Virus record (IMG/VR): IMGVR_UViG_3300033153_016044
Location: 33,730-97,729 of that record
Strand: one strand, 5' to 3'
Length of the DNA stretch: 64,000 nt
Source: a virus
Both the position numbers and the translations under genes were made by a program. This document shows positions 6,601 to 63,731 of this stretch, in pieces. The notes beneath the pieces are model-generated. The model saw nothing but the letters and a program-made list of their open reading frames with translations, ran no database searches and had not been told where the DNA came from. Each line of letters opens with the position of its first letter. The stretch's first letter is position 1.

Positions 6601-9600
6601 CTAATTAATAAAACCAGATGGTAATGTGATTGAAAGTAACGGACAAAGAGGGAAGTTGTGAGATGGACATGCAGAAGAAGAACTTTCGGCAACTATACTT
6701 CCGATTAATGTTCCCCAAATTTCAGAACTAGGAAGACCAACACCAGTTAAGTATCCATGAATACTTGTAGTAATAATTCCACTTACTCCGAATACATAAC
6801 CATGTATAGATGAAGAATTAAATCCCAACCCACTAGCATAACCATGAATACTACTTGGAATTTCATCAGAAGCATCGACAAAACCATGAATGGTCATATC
6901 GGCAGCTCCACTTAATACATACCCTTTAATAGTTGAGGTTGCAATAGGTGGCCGCTTAACATAGCCATGAATAGCTTGCGCGCTAATCTCACCCTTTAGA
7001 TATCCATGAAGAAAGTTAACACCAGGAACTACATTAGATGTAGATGGGTTACCCACTAGGCCACCACCAGAAGGAACAAGCCCCTCACTACCTAGATAAC
7101 CATATATACTAGAGTTGGGATAATTACCCAATAGATATCCATGAACAGATATCGACCCTGACCCAATAGGTGGCAATACATATCCATAAATAGCCTTTTG
7201 GTTTGGACCGAGCCCAAAGATTCCTCCATCCCAACCTTGAGTAAAGCCGTGTCTAAACTTACTAGTAAACTCTCCAGACTCACCAGCTATATAACCATGA
7301 ATAAGCTGAGCCCCAGTAAGGCCTTCTAGGTATCCATGAATATTATCTTGACTTGACATATCTCCGGAGCCAAAGCCTCCGATTAGGAAGCCATCGATTA
7401 CAGAACTAACACCAGTAGGGTCTACGGGAACATTACCAAATAAATAACTATGAACTTGAGAGGTTGTTAATTCATGTCCATGCAAAAACCCATGAATTAA
7501 ACCAGAGGCTTCTGTTCCAAGACCTACTAAATAACCATCTCTAAATGATTGTTGTGGTAGACCAGACGGAATATATCCATGAATAAATTCTGTAGCAATA
7601 CCAGAACTAATTACATATCCATTTATACTACTTATCTCGAACGGACTTCCACCAGTCAAATATCCATAGCGCTGATGTCTTGGTCCAAATTCAATATCTA
7701 CAGGGTCAAGACCGAATACACCATCAATCCAAGCAGCACCATAGGGATATAGAAGTCTGTCAGCAGGAATATCATAGACGCCCTTTGTGTATACCCACTT
7801 TAAAGTTTGAGCCCCTGCAAGACTAGTAGAAAAAGTTTCTCTTTCTCCAAGTTCAGGAATGTTTGAGTTAAAAGCATCTAGAGTATGCCAATGCATATCT
7901 CCATAAGTTTCTTGAAGAACATTATCTATAAAGAATTCAATCTTATCATCTACGTGAACATCCGAACGTATATAAAATCCAAACTCTCTACCAGCACTGC
8001 CGTCTGGTAATCTTTCATCTATATTGACATCAATATCTACTTCCAGAATAGCAGAATGTCCTGGTTGTATTCCTCCGCTCGGTACTATCCTTAGTGGACT
8101 ACCCAATCCAGAAGCATCTCCAATAGCCTCGCTTCTTATAGAAAATCCATCATCAGTTCCTCTTTGTGGAAATACAAATGACCAAATTCCACTCTGTACA
8201 GTTCCATCAAAATCAACTGGAAGAGGAGTAGATGGCAAGAAATTTGTTCTAGTGGCATTACCACTTGCTACAATTCCCCATTCAAAATCTCCAGATGTTC
8301 TCCAGCCTTCTGGTAGAGTCCCCTGTTCTTGTCTGAATGTTTGTTGTGTAGTTTGTAGTGGGCTTCTTACAATCTGTCTGTTATATGGGGGCGGGTCAGA
8401 GGTCGAGTTAGACCATGTTACAACTTCTGGATTAGTAGCTGCTGGACCAAATAATTTAATTTCATATACTCTTGAACTACTTTGTATAGAGTTAAAAAAT
8501 TGAAGTGTTACAAATTTTGCAGTAAATGGGTTAATGTTAAAAATTGGAACTAGCGATGCTACGTTTAAAGATTCTGTAACAGTCTGTGTTCCAGCCATAT
8601 ATTTTTCTAATGAACTATTTTGTGGAGGAAGCGAACTAATTGCACCAGATGGTATTGTAAATAATCTAACATGGTTTATTCCATCTAGTGTTCCCGATAC
8701 AGCTATGCCGGGAGCAGACGTTGTTCCATTTCTTTGTAGTACCTCTACTCTTTCTATAGTTCTAATCTTGTCTAATTCAAGAGTTAATGTATAGCCATCT
8801 CTGACTCTACCATAGGTAGTATTATCATCATCAAAAAGATTAGGAGATTCTTCATAATGAGATGTGAACTGTACGTTAGTATATGCAGCAATGCCTGTAA
8901 AGATTTCATTGGCCGTGCCGGACGTAAGAGTATAGTCAATGGTAAATTCTGATTCTTGCCACCTACCTAATGCGGGAGATTGTTCTACATCCCATACTGT
9001 TAAGATTCCACCAGAAGGATATGTTGAAACATGTCCCTGCGTAACTAGTAGTTCTTGCTTTGTGCCGCTGGCACCCGCGGGCTCTGTGGGATGCTTTAGT
9101 GCTTTAAATCCTCCCCAGAATAATGTATTGCTCCAGCCTCCAGTTTGAGATTGGCCCACAGATGCAGGATGTTTAAGACCCTTATCTTGGTCATCCATGG
9201 TAGGAAATACCCAGTTGCTTCCATCAAAGTCAGCCTTGAATCTTCCTATTGATTGTTTTCCCCATTCGTTTTTCTTTTGAAAATAGAATAAGAATTCTCC
9301 ATCATCATTAAAAGAGAAGTCACAATTAGTTCCTTCTCCTGGGAAGTTATGTCTTGTTACACCTTCTCCTGAAAAATTATTAGGACCTATACCATACATA
9401 TCGCCAGTGGGCACAATTCCAGATTGGATTAGTAATCCGCTTGTGCTACCATTAAGACTACCAGCTTTTGTTACCCAACTATTTTCTGTTCCATTTGCTA
9501 TATCTTTTACATTTATATATTCATCTGTATCTTCTGTCCAGTGATAAATACTCTGACCTACCCCTCCAATTCCAGAAGAGCATACAACGGCCATGCCGTG

Positions 9601-51546: not shown

Positions 51547-51743
51547 TCTATTACTCGCCTTTCGGAAAAGTTCTCTGACATAGTTTTAAGGAAGTCTTTA
51601 AGAATCTCCCCTTCCGTCCTGCCTCTTGTTGCACCGCAGGGGAACTTCCACTGCTTATTATTGACATAGAGTTCATAACCCTTATCATCCCCGGCTCTGG
51701 CTCCTCTATAGCAAACCTCAACTATCTCTATATTCTCAAACAT
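51543..51743 (-). CDS. small hypothetical protein (MFENIE...)
   Basis: TAATG coupling to the RNR stop. Confidence 0.55.
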   Translation of the reverse strand: MFENIEIVEVCYRGARAGDDKGYELYVNNKQWKFPCGATRGRTEGEILKDFLKTMSENFSERRVIE

Positions 51744-53848
51744 TATATTGCACAAGCATCATTAGTACAGAACTTAGACCCGGCAATCTCTGCTTCATCC
51801 GCGCCTTTAAAATTAAGTGGCAGCAAGCTACCGCTGTATTCTTCGAATGTCTCCGCATCCATCTCTTGATACGGTGCCTGGTCATAACTATGATTCGTGA
51901 GCGGTAGGAACGATAGAGTCTTAACATACGGAGCATAGAACTCTATGGCGCGTTCAAGGTCTGCCTTTTCTGATTCACGAACCGTGACAGTACAGCTAAC
52001 GCTATTATCGCTCCAATAGTATTGGAGTTCTCTCACTAAAGCGAGCTGTTCCCAAATACTCACGTCAAATTTGCTCTTTGTAAAATTCGCCTCTTTGACG
52101 GGGAAGTATACTACCGCTGTTCCACCCGCCTTTTTAAACTTGTTAAAGATGAACTCGTTCTGCCTGACATCACGAAAGTTAGCTTTAATCCAGTCTCGTT
52201 TCTCTTGCTCTGTAGTGTCGATTTCTAAATGGCCAGCGTGAGTTAGGAGGTCAACCAGCATGTCCAAGTCTCTGCCGTTCAAGTTATATTCAACCTGGTA
52301 GCCCGCAGCTATGAGCCTGTCCATCATGCGATTGGTAGCTGGGACTCGGACGGACCTTAAGTAATGCTCACTATGTGTGCAGTGCACGCCTGGTGTGGCT
52401 CCTGCAAGCAAACTCACGGTTCCTGAAGGTTTTACTGTGGTCATCTTTATTGAGCGAGGAACGCCTAGCCAACGACTGTAGATGCGGTCTAGTGAACCTA
52501 TGACTTTGTAGCCTTTGTCGCAGAAGTCCCTTAGATAGTTCTGAAGACCAAACTTTTTTATTGCCTGCTGGATGCCCGACATTGAGCAACCGATACGGCG
52601 GTTACGCATCATGACGGAATTAGTGCGCTCATCATGGGTTGGGATTAGGGTGACTGTCTTTGCATACAGGTAGGCGAACTTCAATGTTCTATAGTAGTCC
52701 TCTGCACTATCATGATTAGCCGGGTAGGTTTCCACTAAACAGCACAGTTCTTTGTCCTCCAGAGACTGTTCAGCACAAGGATTAAACCCATCGACATTAT
52801 CATAGGAGTCGCTCTCAAAGCCATGGTACCCATCCTTGTATCTTCCGTAATGACGCGCATTGTCCAGAAAAATGAGTCCTGGTTCTCCGTTAGCAGCAAT
52901 ATTGGGAGTAACACCACCAAAGCTGCTGAAGCGGCTAGCAAACACGCTATTATTAGAAGCCCATCTACGGTCAGCCATTTCTTTGCCATACTTTTTTCCA
53001 TCCTTCATCGTGACGTAATTGATATCATCTATCTCGCCGATTGCCAGCTCTGCCGACCTACGAACGTTGCCTGCGACCACGCACTTGCCAATAAAGTTCA
53101 TCAGGTCCACTATGGCTACGCTGGTTATCTTAAGACCCACGAGAGGGGCTAGGATATAGTCTACGGCTGCGTGTAGTTCACGTAGTGGTTCAGGGCCGGA
53201 GGCTGTGCCCCCGAATCCCTTAATTGGTGTGCCGCGCTTGCGGATTAGCTTGTAGCCATATTCCATAGTCGGACCACCCATATACGAATTAATCCTTAGA
53301 TAGACAGACTCAACCCAGCCTTCACGACTGTCAGGAATTTCATAGAACTCTACCTTGTCCTTGGGCTTCTTAATTGTAACGCGACCTGCACCTTTAGTGT
53401 CGAACCCGATGCCAACGCCGAGCATAAGCATGTCCATGGCCCAAGCGAACGAATTAGCGAGGTCTACCGCAACATCCTTCGTAGATGTAAAGCCACAGTT
53501 GTTTAGGGCTGCTGAACCAACCTTGTCCACCATGGGCGTACCCATAATCCAGAAGCCGCGACCAGGCGGGGTGAACTTAAACTCCCACATGCGCGTGAAG
53601 AACTCCTGTGCGCTCTTCTGTGCCTTATATGCGTTCCAGGGCAATCTGTTGGAACTACAGTGAGACTTCTGTGCACTGAATACTCCTTCTGTTACTCGCT
53701 TACATGTATCATAGTATTCTTCTTGGGTTTCATCCGTTTTTATGCGCGCGTAGGTGCGCTTAAAGACGAAGTACGATAGGTCACCGAATCCCCATTCAGG
53801 TTGCTTGTTTTCATACTTAGTTAGAAAGAGAGGAGAGAGCTTGAACAT
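51743..53848 (-). CDS. nrdJ: class II (adenosylcobalamin-dependent) ribonucleotide reductase, monomeric RTPR-like
   Basis: FTPPGRG, LNNC, VVAGNVRRSA, NPCAEQ..LCCLVE, TTVKPSGTVS, C-terminal C-x4-C; no R2 gene nearby. Confidence 0.9.
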   Translation of the reverse strand: MFKLSPLFLTKYENKQPEWGFGDLSYFVFKRTYARIKTDETQEEYYDTCKRVTEGVFSAQKSHCSSNRLPWNAYKAQKSAQEFFTRMWEFKFTPPGRGFWIMGTPMVDKVGSAALNNCGFTSTKDVAVDLANSFAWAMDMLMLGVGIGFDTKGAGRVTIKKPKDKVEFYEIPDSREGWVESVYLRINSYMGGPTMEYGYKLIRKRGTPIKGFGGTASGPEPLRELHAAVDYILAPLVGLKITSVAIVDLMNFIGKCVVAGNVRRSAELAIGEIDDINYVTMKDGKKYGKEMADRRWASNNSVFASRFSSFGGVTPNIAANGEPGLIFLDNARHYGRYKDGYHGFESDSYDNVDGFNPCAEQSLEDKELCCLVETYPANHDSAEDYYRTLKFAYLYAKTVTLIPTHDERTNSVMMRNRRIGCSMSGIQQAIKKFGLQNYLRDFCDKGYKVIGSLDRIYSRWLGVPRSIKMTTVKPSGTVSLLAGATPGVHCTHSEHYLRSVRVPATNRMMDRLIAAGYQVEYNLNGRDLDMLVDLLTHAGHLEIDTTEQEKRDWIKANFRDVRQNEFIFNKFKKAGGTAVVYFPVKEANFTKSKFDVSIWEQLALVRELQYYWSDNSVSCTVTVRESEKADLERAIEFYAPYVKTLSFLPLTNHSYDQAPYQEMDAETFEEYSGSLLPLNFKGADEAEIAGSKFCTNDACAI

Positions 53849-53880
53849 GGGTTAATCCTCCATGGATGAGTGTGTATACG

Positions 53881-53920
53881 AAAATAGCCCCACCCGATTG
53901 CTAGGTAGGGGCTGATTTTA
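53881..53920. terminator. possibly bidirectional terminator
   Basis: AAAATAGCCCC-ACC..GGT-AGGGGCTGATTTT. Confidence 0.7.
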
Positions 53921-53928
53921 TTTGGGGT

Positions 53929-54294
53929 TTAAAACATGCCGCCAATAAAGTTATCCATCTCATCTGGTGTTAGACGACGGATACCTGCATCTTGCAGATG
54001 TTCTAAGAACGTGAGGGGTTTATCAATGATACCATACTCGACATCATCTGTTCCCATCGTTGTTTCTGTGAATAGCGCATGAGCAGTGCACATGATTACC
54101 AAAAGTGCTTCTCCTGGTTCATCTGTAAGTGCATACCACATGGCGTCACCATTGCGCTTCGCACGAATAGCAGGGCCAATATCGTAGTCAATAAAGTCAC
54201 TAATATCTTTAATGCAAGCTGCAAGTACAGCAGTCTCCTGACTAATCCATTCTGGTCTATCACTCTGCCAGTCTGAGAATTGTTCTGGTGTCAT
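53929..54294 (-). CDS. hypothetical protein (MTPEQFS...)
   Basis: AGGAG RBS before ATG at 54294. Confidence 0.65.
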   Translation of the reverse strand: MTPEQFSDWQSDRPEWISQETAVLAACIKDISDFIDYDIGPAIRAKRNGDAMWYALTDEPGEALLVIMCTAHALFTETTMGTDDVEYGIIDKPLTFLEHLQDAGIRRLTPDEMDNFIGGMF

Positions 54295-54311
54295 GTGCGG
54301 TACTCCTGTTG

Positions 54312-54325
54312 CATAATTATACACC
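54312..54325 (-). promoter_or_regulatory. putative promoter GGTGTATAATTATG
   Basis: Motif copy; first leftward promoter at the divergence point. Confidence 0.65.
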
Positions 54326-54518
54326 GCACTTCTCACGGCTTCTGTCTATGTAGAGTATAGATTTTAAGGCGTGTCTATTAAGGACTTAAGAAGAACGTAA
54401 AGTCAATGGCGGCCTAGTTATGCTTGAACATTATTACTTTGCTGATTATTTTTCTCTGGACCACCCCGGCGCTTCGCTAACTCCCGCAATCCCAGGGATT
54501 TGAAAAAGCCCCGGGGTC

Positions 54519-54548
54519 TTGCTTTTGTCTTGCTGGACGGAGTAGAAT
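54519..54548 (+). promoter_or_regulatory. sigma70-type promoter TTGCTT-N18-TAGAAT
   Basis: Upstream of the GGAGG RBS and ATG 54567. Confidence 0.55.
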
Positions 54549-54566
54549 TCGGGAAGCCACGGAGGC

Positions 54567-54833
54567 ATGACAGTGACGAACGACAGCGCAACCCAGACCA
54601 GCGTTAAGAACTATGACCTATGCCCAGACTGTCTATGTCTGACTGTCGAATGCCCCTGTGCGTACCTTGAGTCGCACGTTGACACAATTCCAAAGACTAT
54701 GCGACTCCGTGCTATTCAGTCCGCCGAACTAGACTCCCCAAACACTACCGCACAGCGTATACTGTGCGTTCTAGCAGGCTGCTACGTTGGCATTCTGCAT
54801 GTTCTCGCCATTGCCTTTCTTCTTTCCCGCTAA
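54567..54833 (+). CDS. hypothetical protein with CPDC-x-C..CPC cluster and C-terminal TM helix
   Basis: GGAGG RBS; translation. Confidence 0.6.
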   Translation: MTVTNDSATQTSVKNYDLCPDCLCLTVECPCAYLESHVDTIPKTMRLRAIQSAELDSPNTTAQRILCVLAGCYVGILHVLAIAFLLSR

Positions 54834-54845
54834 CAGGAGTATCCC

Positions 54846-55448
54846 ATGTCCACGTTCAAAATGACCCTAGACCTTTTCACCGCTTGTGCTGCTGCCATTG
54901 CGGCCGGTAGCACGCTGGCAAAGCACGCCGCTAACGTCGCTTCCTGTGGTGTCACTGACGCCAAGACGTTCTCTCTCGCCTACGCTACCTTCGCTTCCGA
55001 GCAAGCGGAGACGCTTTCGTACACCGCCATTCAGCACGCCTGCAACAAGGCAAGCAAGCCAGCCAAGGCAAGCAAGACGTTGGCTCTGCTCGCGTCTATT
55101 GACGTTCACAACAAGGCGCACAGCGACAGTGCTCCCGTTGTCTTGGCTCTGTCTCTGTCAGAAGACGGCGCAAGATACAGCCTATGCCTGACTGTTGGCG
55201 CTAAGGCTCGTAAGGCTCGCAAGCGTAGCACGGGCGGAACTGTCTCCGCTGGCAGCCATATTGCAGCGCCTACCATTGCAAAGAACTGCCACGAAGAGGA
55301 CGGATACACCTTCACTGGTAGCAGCAAAGAAGACTACGCCATTAACGGCGTGAAGGTTCCCGCTGGCAAGTTCATGCAGACGCTTAAGGATATGGCGCCC
55401 ACCAACGCCGCGACTCACGCCATGCTCACGAAGTACGGCAAACTGTAG
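54846..55448 (+). CDS. Ala/Lys-rich early protein, paralog of 57730..58428 (putative DNA-binding)
   Basis: AGGAG RBS; KARKARKRSTGG linker. Confidence 0.75.
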   Translation: MSTFKMTLDLFTACAAAIAAGSTLAKHAANVASCGVTDAKTFSLAYATFASEQAETLSYTAIQHACNKASKPAKASKTLALLASIDVHNKAHSDSAPVVLALSLSEDGARYSLCLTVGAKARKARKRSTGGTVSAGSHIAAPTIAKNCHEEDGYTFTGSSKEDYAINGVKVPAGKFMQTLKDMAPTNAATHAMLTKYGKL

Positions 55449-55454
55449 GATACA

Positions 55455-55482
55455 GGGAGGGGGGGGATAGCCCCCCCCCTCC
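55455..55482 (+). terminator. G/C hairpin after gene, no U-tract
   Basis: GGAGGGGGGGG-ATAG-CCCCCCCCTCC. Confidence 0.55.
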
Positions 55483-55500
55483 GCCTGTGCTGCCTGTGCT

Positions 55501-55607
55501 GCCGCTGTTCAAGCGGAGGTAGCACGCTAGTGTGGGTGCGCGAAGCGCACCATTACAGTCCGGCGGGACCTCCGCATCCTGGGAAGGTTTTACATTACTG
55601 TGACACT
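55501..55607 (+). repeat. structured intergenic element, copy A (GTTCAA-N10-CAC, hairpin, TCCGGCGGGAC) including a 44-bp direct repeat shared with copy B
   Basis: 55564-55607 equals 57457-57500 with 2 mismatches. Confidence 0.8.
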
Positions 55608-55631
55608 CACGTGCGTGTGATATGTTATACT
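55588..55631 (+). promoter_or_regulatory. activator-type promoter, TTACA-N4-TGTGA box plus TGn-TATACT
   Basis: Copy 1 of 5. Confidence 0.7.
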
Positions 55632-55653
55632 ATCGTATCAAGGAGACAAGAGA

Positions 55654-55854
55654 ATGATGTATCTATATGCTACTGATAGTGTCTGCTGTACGGCAGCTAT
55701 CGTTGTCAACATCACACAGGGTAATACTGTGTGCTCCAAGTGTCATCAGTTCAACCCTGATACCAAGCGTCGTCTTACCATCACCATCAAGCCCAGCAAT
55801 ATCCGTATGATGTCCAAGTCGTGCAAGCCAAGCAAACACCCCAGAGGAGAGTAG
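55654..55854 (+). CDS. small Cys-containing hypothetical protein
   Basis: AAGGAG RBS; CC...CSKC. Confidence 0.6.
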   Translation: MMYLYATDSVCCTAAIVVNITQGNTVCSKCHQFNPDTKRRLTITIKPSNIRMMSKSCKPSKHPRGE

Positions 55855-55857
55855 AGC

Positions 55858-56112
55858 GTGAACATCACAGTAACTAAACACATCATCAAAGTAAGTGACC
55901 TAGTCACTTGTATCGTATGGCAGGATGATACGTCCATGATACTCAGGGTACATTTCCTTGCTGATGATGGCAAGGGATGTCCTGTAAGCACAGAGATGAC
56001 CTGCTCATCACTTGCTGCTCTGCCACCATTCAACGTGACAGAAGAAGAACATCTCAATCTCATGAATAACTGGTCATCACAACAAGACGTTCAACCCAAT
56101 CCAACCGCCTAG
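55858..56112 (+). CDS. hypothetical protein
   Basis: GAGGAG RBS, GTG start. Confidence 0.6.
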   Translation: MNITVTKHIIKVSDLVTCIVWQDDTSMILRVHFLADDGKGCPVSTEMTCSSLAALPPFNVTEEEHLNLMNNWSSQQDVQPNPTA

Positions 56113-56122
56113 GAGACACGAT

Positions 56123-56461
56123 ATGACACCGGCAGAAGCGTACGACAAAGTGATGAGCCTGGCGAGATGGGGCACTAAGCCAAAGAGTGTCCCCCAGACG
56201 CAAGACGCATCAAAGGGTATGTTGGCTCTGGCTGATTTGCTCAGGACCCAAGAGCCCGACATCTTCGATTTCATCATGGGGCTTGATGGCAACCCCCGTA
56301 TCCACAGCCTGTCCATCGGGTACGACGACAACATCACGTTCATGGTCGAGACGGGATTCGGGATGAAGGCGAACGACAAGATTCAGTCCCTCTGCTCGAA
56401 TCAGGGCTACGTGGAGGTCGCCTTCGAAGATGGCGCAGACATCGTGACGTGGTGGGCGTAG
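56123..56461 (+). CDS. hypothetical protein
   Basis: AGGAG RBS. Confidence 0.7.
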   Translation: MTPAEAYDKVMSLARWGTKPKSVPQTQDASKGMLALADLLRTQEPDIFDFIMGLDGNPRIHSLSIGYDDNITFMVETGFGMKANDKIQSLCSNQGYVEVAFEDGADIVTWWA

Positions 56462-56550
56462 TGACCATCTTCTTATTCTTAATCGGAGTGTTTCTACTGG
56501 TCATCACTCCCGCCGTTCTTTACTATCTCGCAAGCAACAACAAAGCCTAG
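56461..56550 (+). CDS. 29-aa single-TM peptide MTIFLFLIGVFLLVITPAVLYYLASNNKA
   Basis: TAGTG coupling; fills the gap up to the next RBS; not in the ORF track. Confidence 0.55.
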   Translation: MTIFLFLIGVFLLVITPAVLYYLASNNKA

Positions 56551-56559
56551 GAGGCTATC

Positions 56560-56985
56560 ATGAACAGAAGACCCACTCCGATACCAACAGCCCGACGATT
56601 CGAAGATAACAAGAGTAGGCATACTCGATACTGCAACGAGTTCGATTGCGGCAAGCCCACGAATAATAGCAAGCCTTTCTGCCAAATCCACGTCGAGTCC
56701 AATCCCTACGTCAAAGGAATTCGCATCGTCATCAATGAAAGGATAAAAGAGATTGAGATGGTCAATAAAAGAGGAAGGTTCTCCATCAACATCGAGGGAA
56801 GCATCGCCAAAGATATAATCCAACTTCTCACTATCTACGGCGAGTGCACCATCAACCGACTTGCAAGAGACATGAATCTCGACCTGTTCATCGCCAAGCA
56901 GTACGTGATTAAACTCAAGCGGAAACGATATGTGATGTTCAGAAAGACGACTCGTGGAACCCTCGTGATTCAGGCAGCGGCATAA
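56560..56985 (+). CDS. zinc finger (C-x3-C..C-x2-H) plus winged-HTH regulator
   Basis: AGGAGG RBS; CTINRLARDMNLDLFIAKQYVIKLKRKRYV wHTH. Confidence 0.7.
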   Translation: MNRRPTPIPTARRFEDNKSRHTRYCNEFDCGKPTNNSKPFCQIHVESNPYVKGIRIVINERIKEIEMVNKRGRFSINIEGSIAKDIIQLLTIYGECTINRLARDMNLDLFIAKQYVIKLKRKRYVMFRKTTRGTLVIQAAA

Positions 56986-57380
56986 TGGATATGGAAAAGT
57001 TCGAGGCTGATTGTGTCGCCGCCGATGCTCGACTCGAAGCGCATCGCGCCCGAGACAAATCAAAAGACGATTGGCCAGACCTAGACAAGAAATGCATCAT
57101 TGAACTCTGCGCCAAGCTGCTCAATCGGACGTACTCCGATGGATACGCCGCCGAAAAGGCGAGACTCAGCAAACACGCTCATCTCCAGACGATTGCACGT
57201 TACGCCACTGTCGCCGCCTTGTGCGCCATTGGTGTCGCCAATCATGACTGGGATGATGTCCAGAACGCCATCGGTTCTTTGGTCACCGTGAGCGGCGCCC
57301 CTGATTGGCGCTGGGCTCGTCATCAGAGACAGATACTCTATTCCCTGCGTCCCAGCAACATCTCCCCAAGTCGATACTAG
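56985..57380 (+). CDS. hypothetical protein
   Basis: TAATG coupling. Confidence 0.65.
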   Translation: MDMEKFEADCVAADARLEAHRARDKSKDDWPDLDKKCIIELCAKLLNRTYSDGYAAEKARLSKHAHLQTIARYATVAALCAIGVANHDWDDVQNAIGSLVTVSGAPDWRWARHQRQILYSLRPSNISPSRY

Positions 57381-57390
57381 GGTATCAGGT

Positions 57391-57500
57391 CAGGCTCCGG
57401 TGTTCAACCGGAGCCTGCACCGTGTTGGTGTTGGCTACGCCAACCTTGCTCTCCGACGGGACCTCCGCAACCTGGGAAGGTTTTACATTTCTGTGACACT
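57391..57500 (+). repeat. structured intergenic element, copy B
   Basis: CAGGCTCCGGT-GTTCA-ACCGGAGCCTG-CAC, GTTGGC-TAC-GCCAAC, TCCGACGGGAC. Confidence 0.8.
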
Positions 57501-57643
57501 TCGCCGTTTTATTATGGTTACGTTCGCCATTTTCCTTTTACATTTCCGTGACACTTCACCCCTGGGGTCGGGTATAATCCCCCAAAAAAAATTCTGAGAC
57601 GGTACACTTCTGTGACAATTCTCCGGATTGGAATCGTTACGCT
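57481..57643 (+). promoter_or_regulatory. three tandem activator-type promoters (boxes at 57481, 57536, 57603; -10 TACGTT, TATAAT, TACGCT)
   Basis: TACA-N4-YGTGACA followed 19-20 nt later by TAnnnT in each copy. Confidence 0.7.
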
Positions 57644-57729
57644 AGACGGGCGTCGCCTCGCAAGCGGGGGCGGCGCGCGTCGCCAGGTATCCACTGGGGC
57701 GCTGATACGCTTGAAAAGGGATTTTCAAA

Positions 57730-58428
57730 ATGGCTAAATTTTCTGATATGTTTGCTGTGGCGACTGAGGAGTTCAACAAAGGTGATACGAAGGGATTCGC
57801 GGCCTACGCCGATATGGTGGCCAAGGTCACCGGCTCGACTGCTGAGGATTTCCTCGCGGCCTTCACTCTCCATCGCGCCAAGGCGGCGCAGGAGTCTTCA
57901 ATCACGGCAATCAACGAGTTCGCCGCAACCCGAACCGTCACCAAAACGGTGATGGCTCTCCTCAACAAGTGCCACGACCACGTCAAGGCTTTCACTATCG
58001 CCGAAGTCAAGGATTCGGAAGACAAGGTTACGACACCGGGATACAAGCCCAAGCTGACCGTCGTGATTGAGTACACCCCCAGCACCGGCGAGGGGAACGA
58101 TATGGTCGCCGCAAAGGCGGCCTTCAAGGTGATTGCTGGCAAGGTCAGCACGCGCAGCGGAGGCGGCAAAGGCGGCACGAAGAAAGGGCGTATCAGCCTG
58201 ATGAACGCCTACAAGTGGGTAAACAAGAACATCGATGGTGGCGAGCGATTCAAGCTAGAGGCAGCCGACGATGGTGGCACCCGCTACTGGCCCGCTGGGG
58301 ATACCGGCGCTGGTCGATACATTCCTAATAAGGGATTGACCAAGTTCCTCCTCGCTGTCGAGAACGATTGCGAGACTCTGAATCACGCACGGTCCTACGA
58401 TGGGATGACCTCGCTTCGCAAGGAATAG
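57730..58428 (+). CDS. early basic protein, paralog of 54846..55448
   Basis: 232 aa; STRSGGGKGGTKKGR linker. Confidence 0.75.
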   Translation: MAKFSDMFAVATEEFNKGDTKGFAAYADMVAKVTGSTAEDFLAAFTLHRAKAAQESSITAINEFAATRTVTKTVMALLNKCHDHVKAFTIAEVKDSEDKVTTPGYKPKLTVVIEYTPSTGEGNDMVAAKAAFKVIAGKVSTRSGGGKGGTKKGRISLMNAYKWVNKNIDGGERFKLEAADDGGTRYWPAGDTGAGRYIPNKGLTKFLLAVENDCETLNHARSYDGMTSLRKE

Positions 58429-58435
58429 GGGATAC

Positions 58436-58466
58436 GGGGGCGGGGGCCGATACGGCCCCCGCCCCC
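58436..58466 (+). terminator. G/C hairpin after gene
   Basis: GGGGGCGGGGGCCG-ATA-CGGCCCCCGCCCCC. Confidence 0.6.
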
Positions 58467-58489
58467 AGCCTTGATTGATATGATAGAGC

Positions 58490-58553
58490 GTGCGGGCGTT
58501 CAACCGTATCACACCTGCCACTGACCCGCAAAGCCGGGTCAGTCCGATGGGAC
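58490..58553 (+). repeat. structured intergenic element, copy C
   Basis: GTTCAA..CAC, ACTGACCCG-CAAAGC-CGGGTCAGT, TCCGATGGGAC. Confidence 0.65.
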
Positions 58554-58642
58554 GGCTGGATACGGGGAATCCATGGACGATGGAGATATATCAAAAATCG
58601 CGATATGATATTATCAATCCATTATTAACATCTATCAAAACA

Positions 58643-58686
58643 TTTTACACTTCTGTGACACTTCCCCCTCAAGATAGTGTTACAAT
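58643..58686 (+). promoter_or_regulatory. activator-type promoter, copy 5 (TGn-TACAAT)
   Basis: TTTTACACTTCTGTGACA-N20-TACAAT. Confidence 0.7.
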
Positions 58687-58733
58687 CGTGATGCGGGAAT
58701 TCCCCGCTCTAATCCGAAAGGCAAGGCGATACG

Positions 58734-60227
58734 ATGCAAGGCAGCGAAGGCAAAGAGATTTTCTCGGTGAAGACACCGAACGATTACTGGCAAAAGGAGA
58801 TTGCCACTTATTACGATTGGCCCTACGCTTGGGGTCGCGAGATAGGGCAGAACTCCCTAGATGCTGGTGCTAAGAACATCAACATCACTCTGACTCCGGC
58901 AAAGGATATTCAACGAGACCCCGATAACGAGTGGAAGACAGATACGTGCTGGGTAGTGTGGGAGGACGATGGGTGTGGTATGGATAGGGACGACGGAGAA
59001 GGCAACCTAATCGTCTTTTCCAAGTTCCTCACCCTGGGCGCATCGCAGAAGAAGGATGGCGACACCGGGGGATTCGGGTGGGCAAAGAAGCTCATCTGCT
59101 TCGCGATGGTCGAGTGGCACATCAGGACCGGCACCCTTCATATCCACGGGGAGGGTGGTCAATACTGGACCGAAGACAATCTTGAGTACGTCGAGGGAAC
59201 GAAGATGCGGATTCGCGTTCCGGCAGCGACCTGGCGGATTCGGCGGAACATCGAGAAATGGCTCTGCTGGACCGATACCAAGGGCGCAACAGTGATGCTG
59301 GATGGTCGCGTCCTCAAAACCTTCGCCGATGTTGCAGTCAAGGGGACTCGCCCAATCCCCGGCGTCGATTGGGCCAAGATGACCGTGACTGAGGTCTCTG
59401 GTCAAAATATTATCATTCGGGCCAACGGCCAGATGATGAGCACGCTGAGCGGGAGCGATGACCAGAAGTACGTAGTGGTGATTGACGTGATTGGCAAGAG
59501 CACCGACCACTTCATGTCGAATCGCGACGGATTGAGGTCCAAGAGCAGAAACGAGATTCAAGGATTTCTCGACAGACTCTTCGCCAACCCCAACCGTATC
59601 TCCAAGCTCGACACTCCTATCTGCCACGATTACAGGGGTGGCAAGGGTGCGATTGAGATTGGGATTTGCGACGGTTCGGGCGCAGACCTCTCCTTCCTCC
59701 TCGAATCGGGAATCGACCTGGTCAAGATGTTGACTGAGCTATTCTCAAAGGAGCGCGGTTCCGCTGGGCACGATAGCTTCGACATCCACGTTCACAACGA
59801 GATGGAGGGTCACGAGATTCCCGAGCGATTCCTCCCCGGCACCTGGGACAAGAAGGCGATTAAGATGATGGCCGAGTGGTGCGCCCTCATCAAGTTCGTC
59901 GGAGAGGTCACCGGATACAACGGACCGATTACTCCGGGCTGGGTGTTCAGTCCAGGCACCACAGCGATGCATAAGCGCGGACACATTCTCCTCAATCCTC
60001 TCTACATAGATGACAAGACGTTTCAGGTTACTGACCGATTAGTCGGCACCGGACCCAGCTCCGATTGGAACTCGATGGTCACGTCTGTGGTCCACGAGTT
60101 TACCCACGCCCACGGCTATCACAACCATGACGTCCGATTCATTAGCGCGATGGGTATGTATTACGCCATGGTGATGGATAACGCCGAGGACCTCCAGGAA
60201 CTCCGCGATTCGTTCTACGGCTGCTAG
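58734..60227 (+). CDS. GHKL (Hsp90/MORC/MutL-like) ATPase fused to a C-terminal HExxH zinc-metallopeptidase-like domain
   Basis: REIGQNSLDA (N box), EDDGCGM (G1), GGFGWAK (G2), GTK; VHEFTHAHGYHNHD. Confidence 0.85.
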   Translation: MQGSEGKEIFSVKTPNDYWQKEIATYYDWPYAWGREIGQNSLDAGAKNINITLTPAKDIQRDPDNEWKTDTCWVVWEDDGCGMDRDDGEGNLIVFSKFLTLGASQKKDGDTGGFGWAKKLICFAMVEWHIRTGTLHIHGEGGQYWTEDNLEYVEGTKMRIRVPAATWRIRRNIEKWLCWTDTKGATVMLDGRVLKTFADVAVKGTRPIPGVDWAKMTVTEVSGQNIIIRANGQMMSTLSGSDDQKYVVVIDVIGKSTDHFMSNRDGLRSKSRNEIQGFLDRLFANPNRISKLDTPICHDYRGGKGAIEIGICDGSGADLSFLLESGIDLVKMLTELFSKERGSAGHDSFDIHVHNEMEGHEIPERFLPGTWDKKAIKMMAEWCALIKFVGEVTGYNGPITPGWVFSPGTTAMHKRGHILLNPLYIDDKTFQVTDRLVGTGPSSDWNSMVTSVVHEFTHAHGYHNHDVRFISAMGMYYAMVMDNAEDLQELRDSFYGC

Positions 60228-60344
60228 CCGTGAGTATCCCCGAAGACATTCAACACCTAGTCTCCGCCCTATCGGGCGGGGGCGTCCCTCTCCTGCCTGC
60301 CTCTTTAATCTCTACCTTTATCCTTGCGATAAGAAAGAAAGATA

Positions 60345-60530
60345 ATGGACACTCTTCATCGAATAAGCCACAGCACAATCTTCTGGCAAATCATGTTCTT
60401 CCTGATGAGCTGCATAGCTGTGACTAACTATGTTATCCGCCCCAGGGTAATCATCAAGACCGAACACATCTACCTTATTTACGAGCATCCGTCCGACGAA
60501 CACCCCATGATAGAAACGAGAGCGATTTAA
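60345..60530 (+). CDS. small membrane protein
   Basis: Hydrophobic IFWQIMFFLMSCIAV segment; TAATG coupling downstream. Confidence 0.55.
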   Translation: MDTLHRISHSTIFWQIMFFLMSCIAVTNYVIRPRVIIKTEHIYLIYEHPSDEHPMIETRAI

Positions 60531-60715
60531 TGGCTGCCCGACCAACGCCCAAGATGGGTATCTACGAACGCACGAAGGGAACACGTCTATGGAAGCGAGT
60601 GATGCCTGGCGCATCTGGCTCTCGCGACCTAATGGCTCGCACCTTCCAATCGTGGTTGATGTTCGCTCCCTCCAACAAAGAGCGCGCAATCCGCAAGATT
60701 CCGAGGACCAAGTGA
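60530..60715 (+). CDS. small basic protein
   Basis: Translational coupling at both ends. Confidence 0.6.
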   Translation: MAARPTPKMGIYERTKGTRLWKRVMPGASGSRDLMARTFQSWLMFAPSNKERAIRKIPRTK

Positions 60716-60831
60716 ATCACTATCACCTCAAACATCCCGACGGTCACGTTGTGACTATCTGGGTTCCTGACCACGTCTACATCGGCTCCTTTACCTACTG
60801 CTCCTGCAACATCGAAAGAAAGAAGAATTAA
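60712..60831 (+). CDS. 39-aa His/Cys peptide
   Basis: GTGA overlap. Confidence 0.5.
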   Translation: MNHYHLKHPDGHVVTIWVPDHVYIGSFTYCSCNIERKKN

Positions 60832-60833
60832 TC

Positions 60834-61007
60834 ATGCCCAAGACTCCAATCCTTACCAAACCCGGCGTCAACGTCACGATGGATGCCAATGGCTATATTG
60901 TTATCCGCTGGAAGACCCAGAGCCTCAATGGTGGCGGTCTCATCTACAACGAAACCTACCACGTTGATTGCGACAAGCGCATCAGCTGGTCGTCGAAGGT
61001 CATCTAA
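60834..61007 (+). CDS. 57-aa hypothetical protein (MPKTPIL...WSSKVI)
   Basis: Not in the ORF track; TAATG coupling to the next gene. Confidence 0.55.
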   Translation: MPKTPILTKPGVNVTMDANGYIVIRWKTQSLNGGGLIYNETYHVDCDKRISWSSKVI

Positions 61008-61186
61008 TGGAAGGCGACTGGACCATCGACGGCTGCCAGGTCGATATCACCATACCTATCCACGTCAGCGAGACACCCGTCCGCGAATCGGAGAAGAGAG
61101 AAATCAAGAACGAGATTCTCAAGGGCAACCGCGAGGGTATCCTTCACCACGGGACCATCAGCCAGCTAACTTGGAAGGTCATTTAA
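61007..61186 (+). CDS. 59-aa hypothetical protein (MEGDWT...LTWKVI)
   Basis: Coupled start. Confidence 0.55.
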   Translation: MEGDWTIDGCQVDITIPIHVSETPVRESEKREIKNEILKGNREGILHHGTISQLTWKVI

Positions 61187-61188
61187 TC

Positions 61189-61323
61189 ATGCCAGACTGT
61201 ATGTATTGCGGTCATCACTACAAAGGCCGTATCTACCCCTGTCCCGAGTGCGGGCCAGAGGAATCAGCCTACGACATCAAGCCTCAGCAGCAGGACGACT
61301 CTGACGATTGGGGGAATATCTAA
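61189..61323 (+). CDS. 44-aa zinc-ribbon peptide
   Basis: CMYC...CPEC. Confidence 0.55.
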   Translation: MPDCMYCGHHYKGRIYPCPECGPEESAYDIKPQQQDDSDDWGNI

Positions 61324-61514
61324 TGTTCCCTCGAATCGCCTCTCTCTCTTGCCGCATCGTCAACCTCCTGCCATACCCCGTATCGGAGTTCCTCGGCAGG
61401 CACGAAATCCACAACGAGAGGTGGGTTCGATACGGTGACGAGATTTACACCGAGGTCACTATCCTCGGCTTCCACGTCGCCCTGATTGGTAAGTATCACG
61501 AACTGAAGAAGTAG
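61323..61514 (+). CDS. 63-aa hypothetical protein
   Basis: TAATG coupling. Confidence 0.55.
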   Translation: MFPRIASLSCRIVNLLPYPVSEFLGRHEIHNERWVRYGDEIYTEVTILGFHVALIGKYHELKK

Positions 61515-61522
61515 CGGACCAC

Positions 61523-61558
61523 CCCGAGATGCGGTTGACCTGTTCAATCGTATCTCGG
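61523..61558 (+). other. 15-bp RNA hairpin (two G-U pairs) closing the early gene block
   Basis: CCGAGATGCGGTTGA-CCTGT-TCAATCGTATCTCGG. Confidence 0.65.
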
Positions 61559-61819
61559 CCGCACGCCCGATATGATAGTAAAAAACGGATTCCCAGTTCC
61601 TGTGAGATTCTGCTAACGCCTCTTGGATTGCATGTATCCTACAGAGCCACGCTCGATTGCTGCATATATGGATAGGAACCTCTCAGTGTATGGGGGGCTT
61701 TGTTACGTATATAAAGATGTTATGGAGATTATATGAGAAGAACCCCGTGGAAATCTCTTCTCTGTCCCAGGGTCGGTGTAAGCCAATGGATAACATCACT
61801 CCCTGGACTCCCTATGGAT

Positions 61820-61885
61820 GGGCCGTGTTCAACCAAAGGATACACGCGCAGATACCAGACAAGGCCCTGGTATCTCCGACGGGGC
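61820..61885 (+). repeat. structured intergenic element, copy D
   Basis: GTTCAA-N10-CAC, AGATACCAG..CTGGTATCT, TCCGACGGGGC. Confidence 0.65.
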
Positions 61886-62365
61886 GATACGATGGAACCC
61901 AGGAGATATATAAAGGACTTACAAGAAGATTTAATAAAGATTTCATGTAGAGCATTTGGGATTTCTGGGTGGGATGTGGTTGGATGGCATTAAATATTAA
62001 GCTAGGCACATCAGCTATGTAGAGAGATAGCAAATGAGACTTAACTCCTTATCTATCCGTAAAGTTCCCTTATATATCCCTAGGGACGAAGCTATAGTGG
62101 GGAGCCATCCTACCTTCTCTTTGTATAGGGGTTATCTCTATGGGATATGCTAGTAAACAAACCCCTTTCTCTATCCTATGTCACGGCGCGAACGGTGGCG
62201 CTCACGAGCCTATCTACCCCCTATCGGACACCTACATCATCCTAAGTCTAGCGATTAAACTACGCGCTCTCTGTGCGTCTGGTGCGTTTATATTTAACGG
62301 AGCCCTGATTTAATGGATAAATAGCCCAAAATCATAGGATTTATGCCCTCATCAAGCCAAATTCC

Positions 62366-62466
62366 CTGCCAAAATGGCAGATTTGACAGGCAAAACGGCC
62401 AAAACTGCCAAAATGGCAGGCCCAGGCGACGTAAACAAAGGAGTTACGCGCGGCACGGGGTTCGCT
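62366..62466 (+). promoter_or_regulatory. candidate sigma54 promoter (CGGCACG-GGGT-TCGCT) with two upstream CTGCCA-AAA-TGGCAG palindromes
   Basis: GG at 62452 and GC at 62464 give exact -24/-12 spacing; palindromes at 62366-62380 and 62405-62419. Confidence 0.6.
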
Positions 62467-62704
62467 CTAGGCAAGGCTCGGCCCGCCGGTACGTCCGCGC
62501 GGGTCGATGCGGCCCCCGCTATCGCGCGGGTCGCGCGGGACGGCTCGCGTATCTTCGCGAGATGTTCTTTCACAATTCGTATCGGCTGGCGCAAGGGACG
62601 GATGAAACCTTGCACAGTAGCGGGATTGCTATCTTCTTCGGTGTTTTTGCCGTGGTAGTGATTGCATGACGCGAGACGATATTTCGGCGAGGATTGATAC
62701 CATG

Positions 62705-63731
62705 GGGTTTTAATCCTACCTTCTTCTTCCCTTACGAGGGGATTAGATTGGCCTAGCCTAGTGCCAATGGTGCCGGATAACATTCGACTCGAAGATTGTA
62801 GCGTTTAGCGTAATCACTCCGGTCTAAACTTTGATGTGCGAACATCAGGACTGCTTTAGATACGGCTCCCGTCGGATGTCTGTGGCTGCGATTATTTGGT
62901 CAGTGTAAAACCTGATTGAGAATCGTAAGTGCAGATAGCTGGCGGAATCTGTTCTAGATGTGGACCTGATTAGTAGCCGCACGAGGGGGATAGACGATGG
63001 CTATGAATCAACATAGCTGAGATGACCTCTTATACCTGTAGGGGCGATTCAAACTGCATTCGATACGGTGATATTTGACAATTAGACGTTGCGTGCGTGA
63101 GGGATACAGCTGTAATCGCTGTGTCTTACACTCGATACGTACTTGCCAATTATATATCGACCCCGGAGACAAGTTAGGGATTTATTCCTAGCCTAGGTCC
63201 ACGATGGCAGTCGATGTATATGGTGTTGTGGTGACGAACACAGATTTAACTGTGCGGTCTAACTATTGTTGTCAGGATGGCAATAATCACAACACTAGGA
63301 TGTCTTAGACGGCATTGTAGCAGGGACGTTGAGATAGCGCTGACAGTTAGGGCAATAAGAACCTATCGTAACGATGTTGGGCAACCTACCCCGGATTTAT
63401 TTCTAGGATGACCCCGACAGGCGACGATAGCAGGCAATTGTGGCACAAATCCACGGGGTGAGTAAACATCCTAGCCTAGCTGCGTAACGTGGTGCTTTTT
63501 CATCAGAAAGCACAATCTGTAATGCGACATTAGCCCGCTCTATCGACAGTAGAGCCGGTGTCCATCATAGACAGATTGAGCCTGGGCGGAAGGGTCATTC
63601 ACCGATGACACGGGTGATGAAACTAGTACCAAGCCAAATCAGGACACTTTCTCGATTTACGAGAGACACCGGGTGGCGGTGATAGGTGAGACTCCTATGT
63701 GTCCAATCTTCTTAACCTTGAAAGGGTTAAT
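62705..63731 (+). ncRNA. candidate large (about 1 kb) highly structured non-coding RNA
   Basis: No track ORF in any frame between 62784 and 63733; more than 15 adjacent or nested stems rich in G-U pairs on the + strand; GNRA, T-loop-like and repeated (A)UUUA loops. Confidence 0.7.

Follow-up and report, generated by a model that had tools for sequence, protein, structure and literature searches.

The early region of this viral genome carries four dispersed copies of a compact element that is most likely a clade-specific structured RNA of ~70-80 nt, with the sense of the gene strand and ~17-19 invariant letters. The window in which we analyzed it is the whole 64-kb stretch of DNA at hand. A pattern search with GTTCAA-N34-52-TCCGRYGGGRC recovered exactly the four copies that an earlier note on this DNA had claimed (55507-55569, 57402-57462, 58498-58553 and 61827-61885, all on the + strand), whereas none of 100 dinucleotide-preserving shuffles contained a match, i.e., four were observed against none expected. 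The spacing of 45-52 nt given in that note holds too, with TCCG lying 52, 50, 45 and 48 nt after GTTCAA in copies A, B, C and D, respectively. Across the whole 97,729-bp genome the word TCCGRYGGGRC is restricted to these four copies on either strand; every copy is oriented in the same direction as the genes, and all four fold better on the + than on the - strand. The copies, a relative that has only the first hairpin, and the neighboring features are as follows:

55493..55570, + strand: copy A (pattern match, model matches, consensus fold); H1 55496-55525, GUUCAA 55507-55512, H2 55535-55551 (7 bp, loop GAA), H3 55558-55569
57388..57463, + strand: copy B (pattern match, consensus fold, model matches); H1 57391-57417 (stem of 10-13 bp, loop UGUUCAA), H2 57430-57444 (6 bp, loop UAC), H3 57451-57462
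58486..58554, + strand: copy C (pattern match; found by covariance model R1); short H1 in which 58492-58495 pairs with 58504-58507, GUUCAA 58498-58503, H2 58521-58542 (8 bp), H3 58542-58553
61810..61886, + strand: copy D, divergent (pattern match); weak H1, GUUCAA 61827-61832, H2 61850-61875 (9 bp, 8-nt loop), H3-like UCC-GACG-GGG 61875-61885
61526..61556, + strand: copy E, H1-only relative (fold z -2.7); a 13-bp hairpin with two G·U pairs, 10 nt past a stop codon, with GTTCAA 61542-61547 spanning part of the loop and the 3' strand, then a GATATGATA box; H2 and H3 absent
55455..55483, + strand: T_A, a GC-rich hairpin without a U tract, between the stop codon of a 200-aa gene and copy A
58436..58466, + strand: T_C, a GC-rich hairpin without a U tract (13 bp, loop GAUAC), between the stop codon of a 232-aa gene and copy C
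55588..55640, + strand: first promoter-like box (repeat family D1; genome-wide count)
57481, 57536, 57600 and 58643: starts of the other four promoter-like boxes

Three hairpins and their covariation

The earlier note described a two-part element; its conserved words stand, but the fold comprises three hairpins, with the second word forming a mini hairpin of its own. H1 has a variable stem that includes G·U pairs and carries GUUCAA toward the 3' side of its loop. H2 is a perfect Watson-Crick stem of 6-11 bp that is unlike between copies and has a loop of mostly 3 nt (GAA, UAC, CAAAGC and ACAAGGCC in this genome). H3 is an invariant mini hairpin of the form (G)UCC-GNYG-GGA(C). The fold confirms the hairpin-loop position of GTTCA in A and B, and also that a perfect hairpin, unrelated from copy to copy, precedes TCCG in each. 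Other details of the note apply more narrowly: the CAC 10 nt after GTTCAA is present in A, B and D but is not conserved in relatives, and in A and B it is a piece of the H1 3' strand; the RY of the second word is right for this genome, but in the wider family these letters are NY, the middle of a 4-nt loop; and the shared 3' extensions, CCTGGGAAGG in A/B and GGAGATATAT in C/D, are found in this genome but only partly retained in relatives.

H2 and the conserved word are separated by 7 nt in copies of the A/B class and by 0 nt in those of the C/D class, and the linkers are conserved among orthologues and different among paralogues. GUUCAA occupies the loop in A and B, but the folds of copy E and of the L121 orthologue of copy C show it paired; it may thus be read as sequence rather than as a loop. 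A loop-tail pairing of GUUC with GGAC is also possible within the element.

An alignment of five A/B-type copies shows covariation in 12 of the 24 pairs of the three-hairpin consensus. In a 10-copy alignment 85.5% of the cells are paired, as against 64.8% when shuffled and 31-43% when slid; both sides have changed in 17 of 23 pairs, and H2 is 98% paired. With the element known from four genomes, the H3 stem and any pseudoknot are predictions beyond the reach of covariation. Of the 150 pairs in the folded H1 segments, 19 are G·U; these would turn into A·C mismatches on the other strand, which argues for the + strand. Among ~97 H2 stem pairs (hand count over 12 core stems) there is no G·U pair or mismatch; this is unusual for an RNA helix, and a DNA hairpin would also suit it.

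Homologues in related phages

Eight further copies occupy matching syntenic places in three metagenomic contigs of related phages (L121, L122 and L132):

L121:2814-2891: orthologue of copy A, with compensatory changes in H1 and H2
L121:3789-3866 and L132:876-955: orthologues of copy B
L121:4928-4993, L122:303-377 and L132:1858-1933: orthologues of copy C
L121:7732-7789 and L122:4080-4152: orthologues of copy D

The H1 stem of the copy B orthologue in L132 differs entirely in sequence from that of copy B, the copy D orthologue in L121 retains H2 via three compensatory pairs, and the H3 loops of the relatives include GCUG and GUGG. The copy E hairpin is retained in L121 and L122 with pairs changed on both sides (alignment read by eye). 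In the surroundings, the place of T_A in L121 holds a hairpin of other sequence, T_C is retained in all three contigs with altered stem letters, and the promoter-like boxes are retained in these and in the more distant L123. The neighboring early protein is 59-64% identical across the relatives and the adjacent ribonucleotide reductase 93%. An unrelated viral contig with no protein similarity (L182) has TCCGTTGGGAC ~52 nt upstream of the same promoter-like box, with H1 and H2 absent. The distance from the element to the box varies, being ~19 nt here, ~26 nt in L121 and L132 and ~52 nt in L182 (the last two hand-counted).

The covariance model R1 was derived from five A/B-type copies with no C copy included. 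In a search of 79 kb on both strands it recovered five of the seven C/D-type copies at E<0.02, with no further match below E 0.5. Copy A scored 89 bits with R1 and 79 bits with a second model, R2; copy B was also matched by both, and copy C scored 20.7 bits (E 0.005) with R1 and 54.8 bits with R2. Copy D and its L121 orthologue are divergent members: the former reached merely 12 bits (E about 1) with R2 and the latter was matched by neither model at E up to 10, while the L122 orthologue of copy D scored 53 bits. Copy E was not recovered by the models. The covariance-model search proposed in the earlier note thus found homologues, and shuffled controls gave no similar matches. Together, the syntenic homologues, the covarying stems and the specificity of the model support that note's view of the variable stems as part of a functional structured RNA or single-stranded DNA motif; among the findings here, none points to the DNA-injection signal that it had also suggested.

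Candidate roles at the junctions of early units

As the earlier note had it, A, B and C follow a stop codon or GC-rich hairpin and lie upstream of promoter-like boxes (TTTTACAyTTCyGTGACAC, ~20 nt, TAnnnT, with TGn often preceding TAnnnT), which are outside the element. A and C are placed behind U-less GC hairpins that directly follow stop codons, and H1 of copy B begins ~10 nt 3' of the stop codon at 57378-57380; copy D is in a long non-coding leader and not behind a protein gene. Hairpin-plus-U terminator-like sites are present in the late region. H1, H2, T_A and T_C are absent from the list of hairpin-plus-T sites, having no T run after them; the units that end at A, B, C and the copy E hairpin lack a U tract, and hence an ordinary intrinsic terminator would not account for their ends.

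The analysis shows the structure of the element, how it is conserved, its strand and where it is placed, whereas we infer both that it is transcribed and what it does. We tentatively favor a role in cis at unit junctions, where the RNA would generate or process the 3' ends of early transcripts, a reading to which we give somewhat less than an even chance. The element would lie in the untranslated tail of each early unit, just 5' of the promoters of the next, and would work in cis on transcripts running on from the upstream genes. Their 3' ends might arise either from non-canonical termination that depends on a factor or on the fold, or from cleavage by an endonuclease or by the RNA itself; the upstream message would be left with a stable GC hairpin cap, and the next promoter would be shielded from incoming polymerases. 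H1 would present GUUCAA, H2 would be purely structural and H3 (UCC-GNYG-GGA) would supply the invariant part. There is precedent in phages T7 and SP82, whose early transcripts are cut at conserved intergenic structures. The leader location of copy D is a poor fit to a pure end-of-unit role, and no nuclease, terminator factor or catalytic core could be named for it.

Antitermination is, next to processing or 3'-end formation, the other leading candidate. If the element were a processive antiterminator of the put or nut kind, the nascent transcript would act, by itself or jointly with a protein of phage or host, on the host polymerase that had just produced it, modifying this enzyme for read-through of the hairpins and terminators of the following units. 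We consider this credible but unlikely. The leader location of copy D fits it, and hairpins or terminator-like sites do follow the copies (T_C after B, 60273-60299 after C, and 62097 and 62544 after D). In phage lambda nutR stands directly after a stop codon, which the post-stop-codon site here recalls. The several ~70-80-nt copies, each combining stem-loops with unpaired letters that are conserved, stand in an early region that the host polymerase apparently transcribes, and so have the layout of HK022 putL/putR (PMC9378689). However, A, B and C lie upstream of recognizable promoters, so that polymerases starting there would miss the nearest copy; boxA is absent, the H2 loops are unlike in each copy, in contrast to boxB, and neither a similarity to put nor an N-like protein was found.

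The perfect inverted repeats of H2 and H3, which are such on either strand, would also allow the element to act as DNA, either through hairpins in single-stranded or supercoiled DNA (cruciforms) that serve as an N4-type promoter, a priming or replication signal, or a nick or recombination site, or through its words as protein-binding sites. The mostly 3-nt H2 loops, like those of the N4 promoter hairpins (PMC4496689), and the lone TCCGTTGGGAC of L182, a hint that the word is perhaps recognized by its sequence, point this way. Nevertheless, such a role is rather improbable: searches detected no virion or single-subunit RNA polymerase, and the terminase is indicative of a siphovirus with a long tail; no letter of H2 is conserved, and H2 lies 0 or 7 nt from the word, which is not the N4 arrangement; H1 requires G·U pairs, available on the + strand only; the distance to the promoter box is not kept; and compensatory changes in the variable stems argue against a duplex protein site.

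We regard as slightly more improbable still a family of trans-acting RNAs freed from 3' untranslated regions, whose shared scaffold (the GUUCAA loop and H3) would bind one partner, be it a titrated protein or the large structured RNA 1 kb downstream. Its attractions are the invariant scaffold common to four to five copies per genome, the orthologue-specific linkers, and the presence in that large RNA, at 62867-62876, of UCCCGUCGGA, which is complementary to H3: on the opposite strand the H3 word has a single complement, within the large RNA, and all four H3 variants of this genome could pair with UCCCGUCGGA via wobble. Against this, the search was post hoc (a 9-nt complement is expected ~0.02 times per 1.2 kb by estimate), a 150-nt fold already pairs part of the UCCCGUCGGA stretch, the GCUG and GUGG loops of the relatives would be incompatible with this genome's UCCCGUCGGA, and the modules have no promoter or terminator of their own nearby. 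That the copies are functionless relics of intergenic DNA duplication is very improbable. A and B are 87% identical across 60 nt, promoter included, and their 3' extensions are closer to each other within a genome than to their orthologues, which shows recombination between copies; yet words and fold are kept in four genomes whose early proteins are down to ~60% identical, with many compensatory changes, and this covariation disfavors duplication alone.

A bolder proposal, which we think quite unlikely, is that the element is a new autonomous RNA device, either a self-cleaving ribozyme or a protein-free polymerase-modifying RNA, used four to five times to punctuate and time a fast-evolving early region, maybe together with the neighboring 1-kb ornate RNA that holds the H3 complement. 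The early regions of phages are where host takeover gets timed, and to our knowledge few RNA devices, namely nut, put and RNase III sites, have been described there. Here, a compact, well-defined, covarying motif recurs at each early-unit junction in a phage lineage of which no relative is in culture, and it neighbors a structured RNA of very large size. If the motif proves to effect 3'-end formation without an ordinary terminator, self-cleavage or polymerase reprogramming, it would represent a new mechanism and a small portable part; if merely a stabilizer, it would still be a clean marker of the early-unit boundaries of this clade.

Comparison with known systems

Rfam 15 gave no gathering-level match in the 64-kb window; at E up to 10, positions 55000-62500 together with L121, L122 and L132 gave scattered, unrelated weak matches, none recurring at the copies. 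ARAGORN found no tRNA or tmRNA in the window. A tRNA-like identity was rejected: UUCAA agrees with the pentamer of the T loop, yet neither the register of the loop nor the pair that closes it (G53-C61 in tRNA) fits. An intrinsic (rho-independent) terminator was ruled out by the lack of a U tract directly after the GC-rich hairpin. For an integron attC site GTTCAAC fits RYYYAAC, but the 3' end lacks the GTTRRRY partner; no integron integrase was recognized among the proteins scanned.

The promoters of the N4 virion RNA polymerase, located in the early region, form hairpins (5-9 bp, 3-nt loop) that adjoin conserved letters (PMC4496689). These hairpins have conserved bases at fixed distances from the start site, whereas H2 is devoid of such bases and variably spaced. 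Neither the 3316-aa protein nor any of the other large proteins matched Pfam or PHROG families, and none had a PDB sequence match to polymerases of the N4 or crAss type, although very remote homology may escape such searches; with a virion RNA polymerase undetectable, an N4-type hairpin promoter is unlikely.

The element resembles the small self-cleaving ribozymes of phages (we compared hammerhead, twister, pistol, hatchet and HDV-like) in its size, co-oriented intergenic copies and freely varying helices; unlike in these, its conserved letters are in a loop and a stem rather than in a junction core, and the Rfam ribozyme models gave no match at E up to 10. The RNase III sites of T7 and SP82 are ~20-bp duplexes with an internal loop that leave hairpin-ended early messages. 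They are likewise conserved structures between early genes that divide up polycistronic early RNA, but each unit here has its own promoters, and because the helices of the element are of 4-13 bp, separate and not coaxially continuous, RNase III is an unlikely enzyme.

The putL and putR sites of HK022 are ~70 nt long, have two stem-loops, need no protein and act in cis on transcripts of the host polymerase (PMC9378689), whereas activity of the present element is predicted. Both come as several ~70-nt early-region copies per phage in which stem-loop shape counts for more than sequence. However, put lies downstream of early promoters, while our element is upstream of visible promoters and directly behind gene ends; it has three hairpins rather than two, and the sequences are dissimilar. 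A lambda nut site was rejected, as GUUCAA is not boxA, no boxA-like word is present and the hairpin loops differ in every copy. Nonetheless, as in nut, a hairpin comes after a short, conserved word that is single-stranded, and this arrangement recurs in the early region, at times right behind a stop codon; in lambda the boxB loop is the conserved, protein-binding part, and here a third, invariant mini hairpin is added.

Distribution of the element and its genomic setting

We searched the window for the two words by which the earlier note had recognized four dispersed copies of a structured element, GTTCAA and, 45–52 nt on, TCCGRYGGGRC. This recovered four matches, all on the + strand, as against none in 100 shuffles, and the pattern is thus a real one. 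The second word is confined to these four element sites and occurs nowhere else in the 97,729-bp genome. The element is a module of about 70–80 nt comprising three hairpins: H1, a variable stem bearing GUUCAA; H2, a copy-specific stem; and H3, an invariant mini-hairpin.

Copies of the element and a related hairpin (window coordinates)
55493-55570, + strand: copy A
57388-57463, + strand: copy B
58486-58554, + strand: copy C
61810-61886, + strand: copy D
61526-61556, + strand: E, a hairpin related to H1

Using a profile of homologues of a 497-aa early protein, we retrieved metagenome contigs, of which three from related phages (L121, L122 and L132) furnished eight additional copies (four, two and two, respectively), all of them syntenic, with the same placement relative to the same genes. 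The element is absent from more distant relatives (26–33% identity in the 497-aa protein); one of these, L123, retains the promoter-like box described below, though the element is missing there. Searches of two early proteins against viral contigs found no close relatives, a profile search of the same kind of contigs recovered distant relatives only, all without the element, and a DNA search of a phage collection gave no match. Scans of viral and prokaryote genome contigs with three patterns returned single matches only; since these lie inside coding sequence or lack a hairpin, they are attributable to chance. So far, the family is limited to one clade of four genomes. In copy C of L132, TCCGC is duplicated, the repeats being separated by two Ns (L132:1910-1921), probably an assembly or masking artefact, and this copy was handled with caution. 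The 497-aa protein itself (58734-60227) weakly matches GHKL-type ATPases, at a score under the Pfam cut-off, and has an HExxH motif (H454, E455, H458) invariant in 12 of 12 aligned homologues; it could be an ATPase-metallopeptidase fusion.

The window is the terminal 64 kb of a single virus contig, in which the genes at 1–88 kb are all on the - strand with ~40% G+C, whereas the last 9.4 kb (window 54.3–64 kb) is + strand and 50–55% G+C. Relative to L121, the ribonucleotide reductase is 93% and its neighbour 79% identical, whereas the adjoining + strand early proteins are only ~60–64% identical. The GC-rich block therefore belongs to the phage itself and evolves fast, and is no host flank. A sharp mosaic boundary falls at the divergent intergenic region 54337-54566, with the early genes (54567-61514) being 10–15 points richer in G+C than the late-side genes (51743-54336). 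IMG/VR labels the record a provirus and estimates its completeness at 62%, and an identical 497-aa protein sits on a 101-kb contig of another assembly; hence, the early region lacks its right end, and further copies are possible beyond 64000. The terminase is ~26% identical to those of Bacillus siphophages, and the closest enzymes to the reductase are from actinophages. The 3316-aa protein has no match in Pfam, PHROG or PDB, and its gene is sited in the late region among other large genes likewise without Pfam or PHROG matches, for which reason it is more likely a tape measure than a virion RNA polymerase. An N4-like promoter, which this gene had suggested, was rejected given the absence of a polymerase signal and the siphovirus-like terminase. 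A query of the ESM Atlas for the function of the upstream 232-aa protein yielded nothing usable.

Anatomy and covariation of the three hairpins

RNAalifold on five A/B-type copies returned exactly H1, H2 and H3, with both sides changed in 12 of 24 pairs. As a check of the kind that the earlier note had proposed, a covariance model was built from these five copies. Of the seven C/D copies it recovers five, at E 5e-7 to 0.02; an unfiltered search of 79 kb on both strands gave no further match below E 0.5. In an alignment of 10 copies, 85.5% of cells are paired, compared with 64.8% upon shuffling (a value of 85.5% being reached in 0 of 500 shuffles) and 31–43% when the partners are slid, and both partners change in 17 of 23 pairs. 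Of the three hairpins, H2 is 98% paired and covaries in 7/7 pairs, and H1 is 75% paired and covaries in 10/12, while H3 is invariant in this alignment, such that covariation neither supports nor refutes it.

The H1 stems differ by copy, with three unrelated sequences in the A/B class and a 4-bp stem in class C; GUUCAA occupies the 3' edge of the H1 loop, immediately ahead of the 3' strand. After a linker comes H2, a perfect 6–11-bp hairpin with no letters in common between copies, whose loop is mostly 3 nt, a longer CAARGCC-like loop being kept in class D. H3, a 3–4-bp hairpin of the form (G)UCC-GNYG-GGA(C), follows at a distance of 7 nt in the A/B class and 0 nt in C/D, most often with CAG just before it; relatives have GCUG and GUGG among their H3 loops. 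The RY that the earlier note placed in the second word is simply the centre of the 4-nt H3 loop. In their 3' extensions, A and B of one genome resemble each other more closely than either resembles its orthologue; copies therefore exchange sequence, yet each keeps its distinct H2.

Copy D scores only 12 bits with a second model, which also misses its L121 orthologue, and is accordingly regarded as a divergent member; it retains the two words, and three pairs of its H2 are compensatory, H1 being nearly absent. The same model found no copy in the first 33.7 kb of the genome. The E hairpin (13 bp, two G·U pairs, containing GTTCAA) lies 10 nt past a stop codon and is followed by CCGATAYGATAC (window 61526-61590). 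It is conserved in three genomes (L121 about 7530-7600, L122 about 3890-3960), with apparent compensatory changes in an alignment read by eye, and resembles a form of the element reduced to H1, or else an independent signal at the end of a unit.

Several other identities and folds were rejected. Rfam searches of the window and relatives, with gathering thresholds as well as with a cut-off relaxed to E 10, found no known RNA family, and ARAGORN found no tRNA-like genes. A long-range GUUCAAnCGGA/UCCGnnGGGAC helix is possible in A and B here, absent in C and D, and broken in copy A of L121, where the change is compensated within H1 instead. The pairing of a helix closing H2 and H3 (A: GCGGAGG/CCUCCGC; C: CCGUAUC/GAUACGG) is not kept by orthologues, and an H1 loop of only 7 nt leaves no room for the inner helices of an HDV-like topology. 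A small ORF from the GTG of GTGTTCAA in copy B has no counterpart in other copies, and the hairpin at about 60262-60285, past the end of the 497-aa gene, was dismissed as a sixth copy, as relatives do not keep the nearby TTCAA.

Strand, gene ends and neighbouring boxes

Every copy is co-oriented with the genes, and the fold is more stable on the + strand in all four (z of -2.7, -3.8, -2.5 and -1.0 for A–D, versus -1.3, -2.8, -1.1 and -0.8 on the - strand). The G·U pairs in H1 and the E hairpin become mismatches if read on the opposite strand, which favours an RNA transcribed in the same sense as the genes. The core H2 stems have no G·U or mismatch in ~97 pairs (manual count), a property that would also be required of a DNA hairpin.

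Two paralogous genes each have, directly 3' of the stop codon, a GC-rich hairpin of 11–13 bp without a U tract, and A and C follow these hairpins; H1 of B begins ~10 nt past a stop codon. Since hairpin-plus-U terminator-like sites do occur in the late region, the U-less ends of early units are a distinct feature. Downstream are promoter-like boxes that include a TAnnnT element, in many cases with TGn before it; the distance from element to box varies from ~19 nt here to ~26 nt in L121 and L132 (manual count).

Positions of the promoter-like box TTTACAyTTCyGTGACA
55588, 57481, 57536, 57600 and 58643, window: promoter-like box
L182:3662, 3774 and 3833, - strand: promoter-like box in an unrelated viral contig

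L182, a 5-kb contig, shares no protein similarity with this phage, and its three boxes lie, in our reading, just upstream of a TTGACA -35. Tandem partial copies occur in another contig group (L178, L181, L184). A host factor common to unrelated phages may act at this box. At L182:3585-3660, TCCGTTGGGAC stands ~52 nt upstream of a box between two AAGGACTTA words; the window has AAGGACTTA at 54376 and 61914 as well, and in L122 it follows copy D.

A further box, GATAYGAT(A/G), flanks C, D and E (58477-58488, 58606-58615, 61575-61585, 61884-61893), with matching sites in L121, L122 and L132; TG often precedes it, giving what reads like an extended -10. Compared with the rest of the genome, the early block is enriched on its + strand ~4-fold in GATAC and ~13-fold in GATACG. 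This box may represent another type of promoter, or a site for a regulator. Upstream of a large structured RNA and surrounded by GCCAAAA repeats, two identical CTGCCA-AAA-TGGCAG palindromes 38 bp apart (62368-62382 and 62406-62420) resemble iterons or operators.

Possible functions

The module is tightly tied to upstream gene ends and loosely to downstream promoters, and for this reason we tentatively favour, at somewhat below even chances, the view that it acts in cis to generate early-transcript 3' ends. Such ends would arise through termination of a non-canonical type, or through cleavage, whether by the RNA itself or by an enzyme of the host; in both cases the messages would be capped by a hairpin and the next promoter insulated. 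A role of the hairpins or words at the DNA level is quite improbable, being weakened by the variable spacing, the strand-specific G·U pairs and the lack of a detectable phage polymerase; in its favour, the unrelated L182 has the H3 word by itself upstream of a box of this kind. About as low we place a trans-acting role, including docking on the large RNA ~1 kb downstream: its positions 62867-62876 are the complement of H3, but this is a single post-hoc match and the segment is already partly paired in the local fold.

The main rival to 3'-end formation is a put- or nut-like antiterminator, which we consider unlikely. Copies A–C are upstream of visible promoters, and the element has neither a boxA nor a conserved boxB loop; nevertheless, its size, copy number and setting would fit such antiterminators, as would the position of copy D in a leader.
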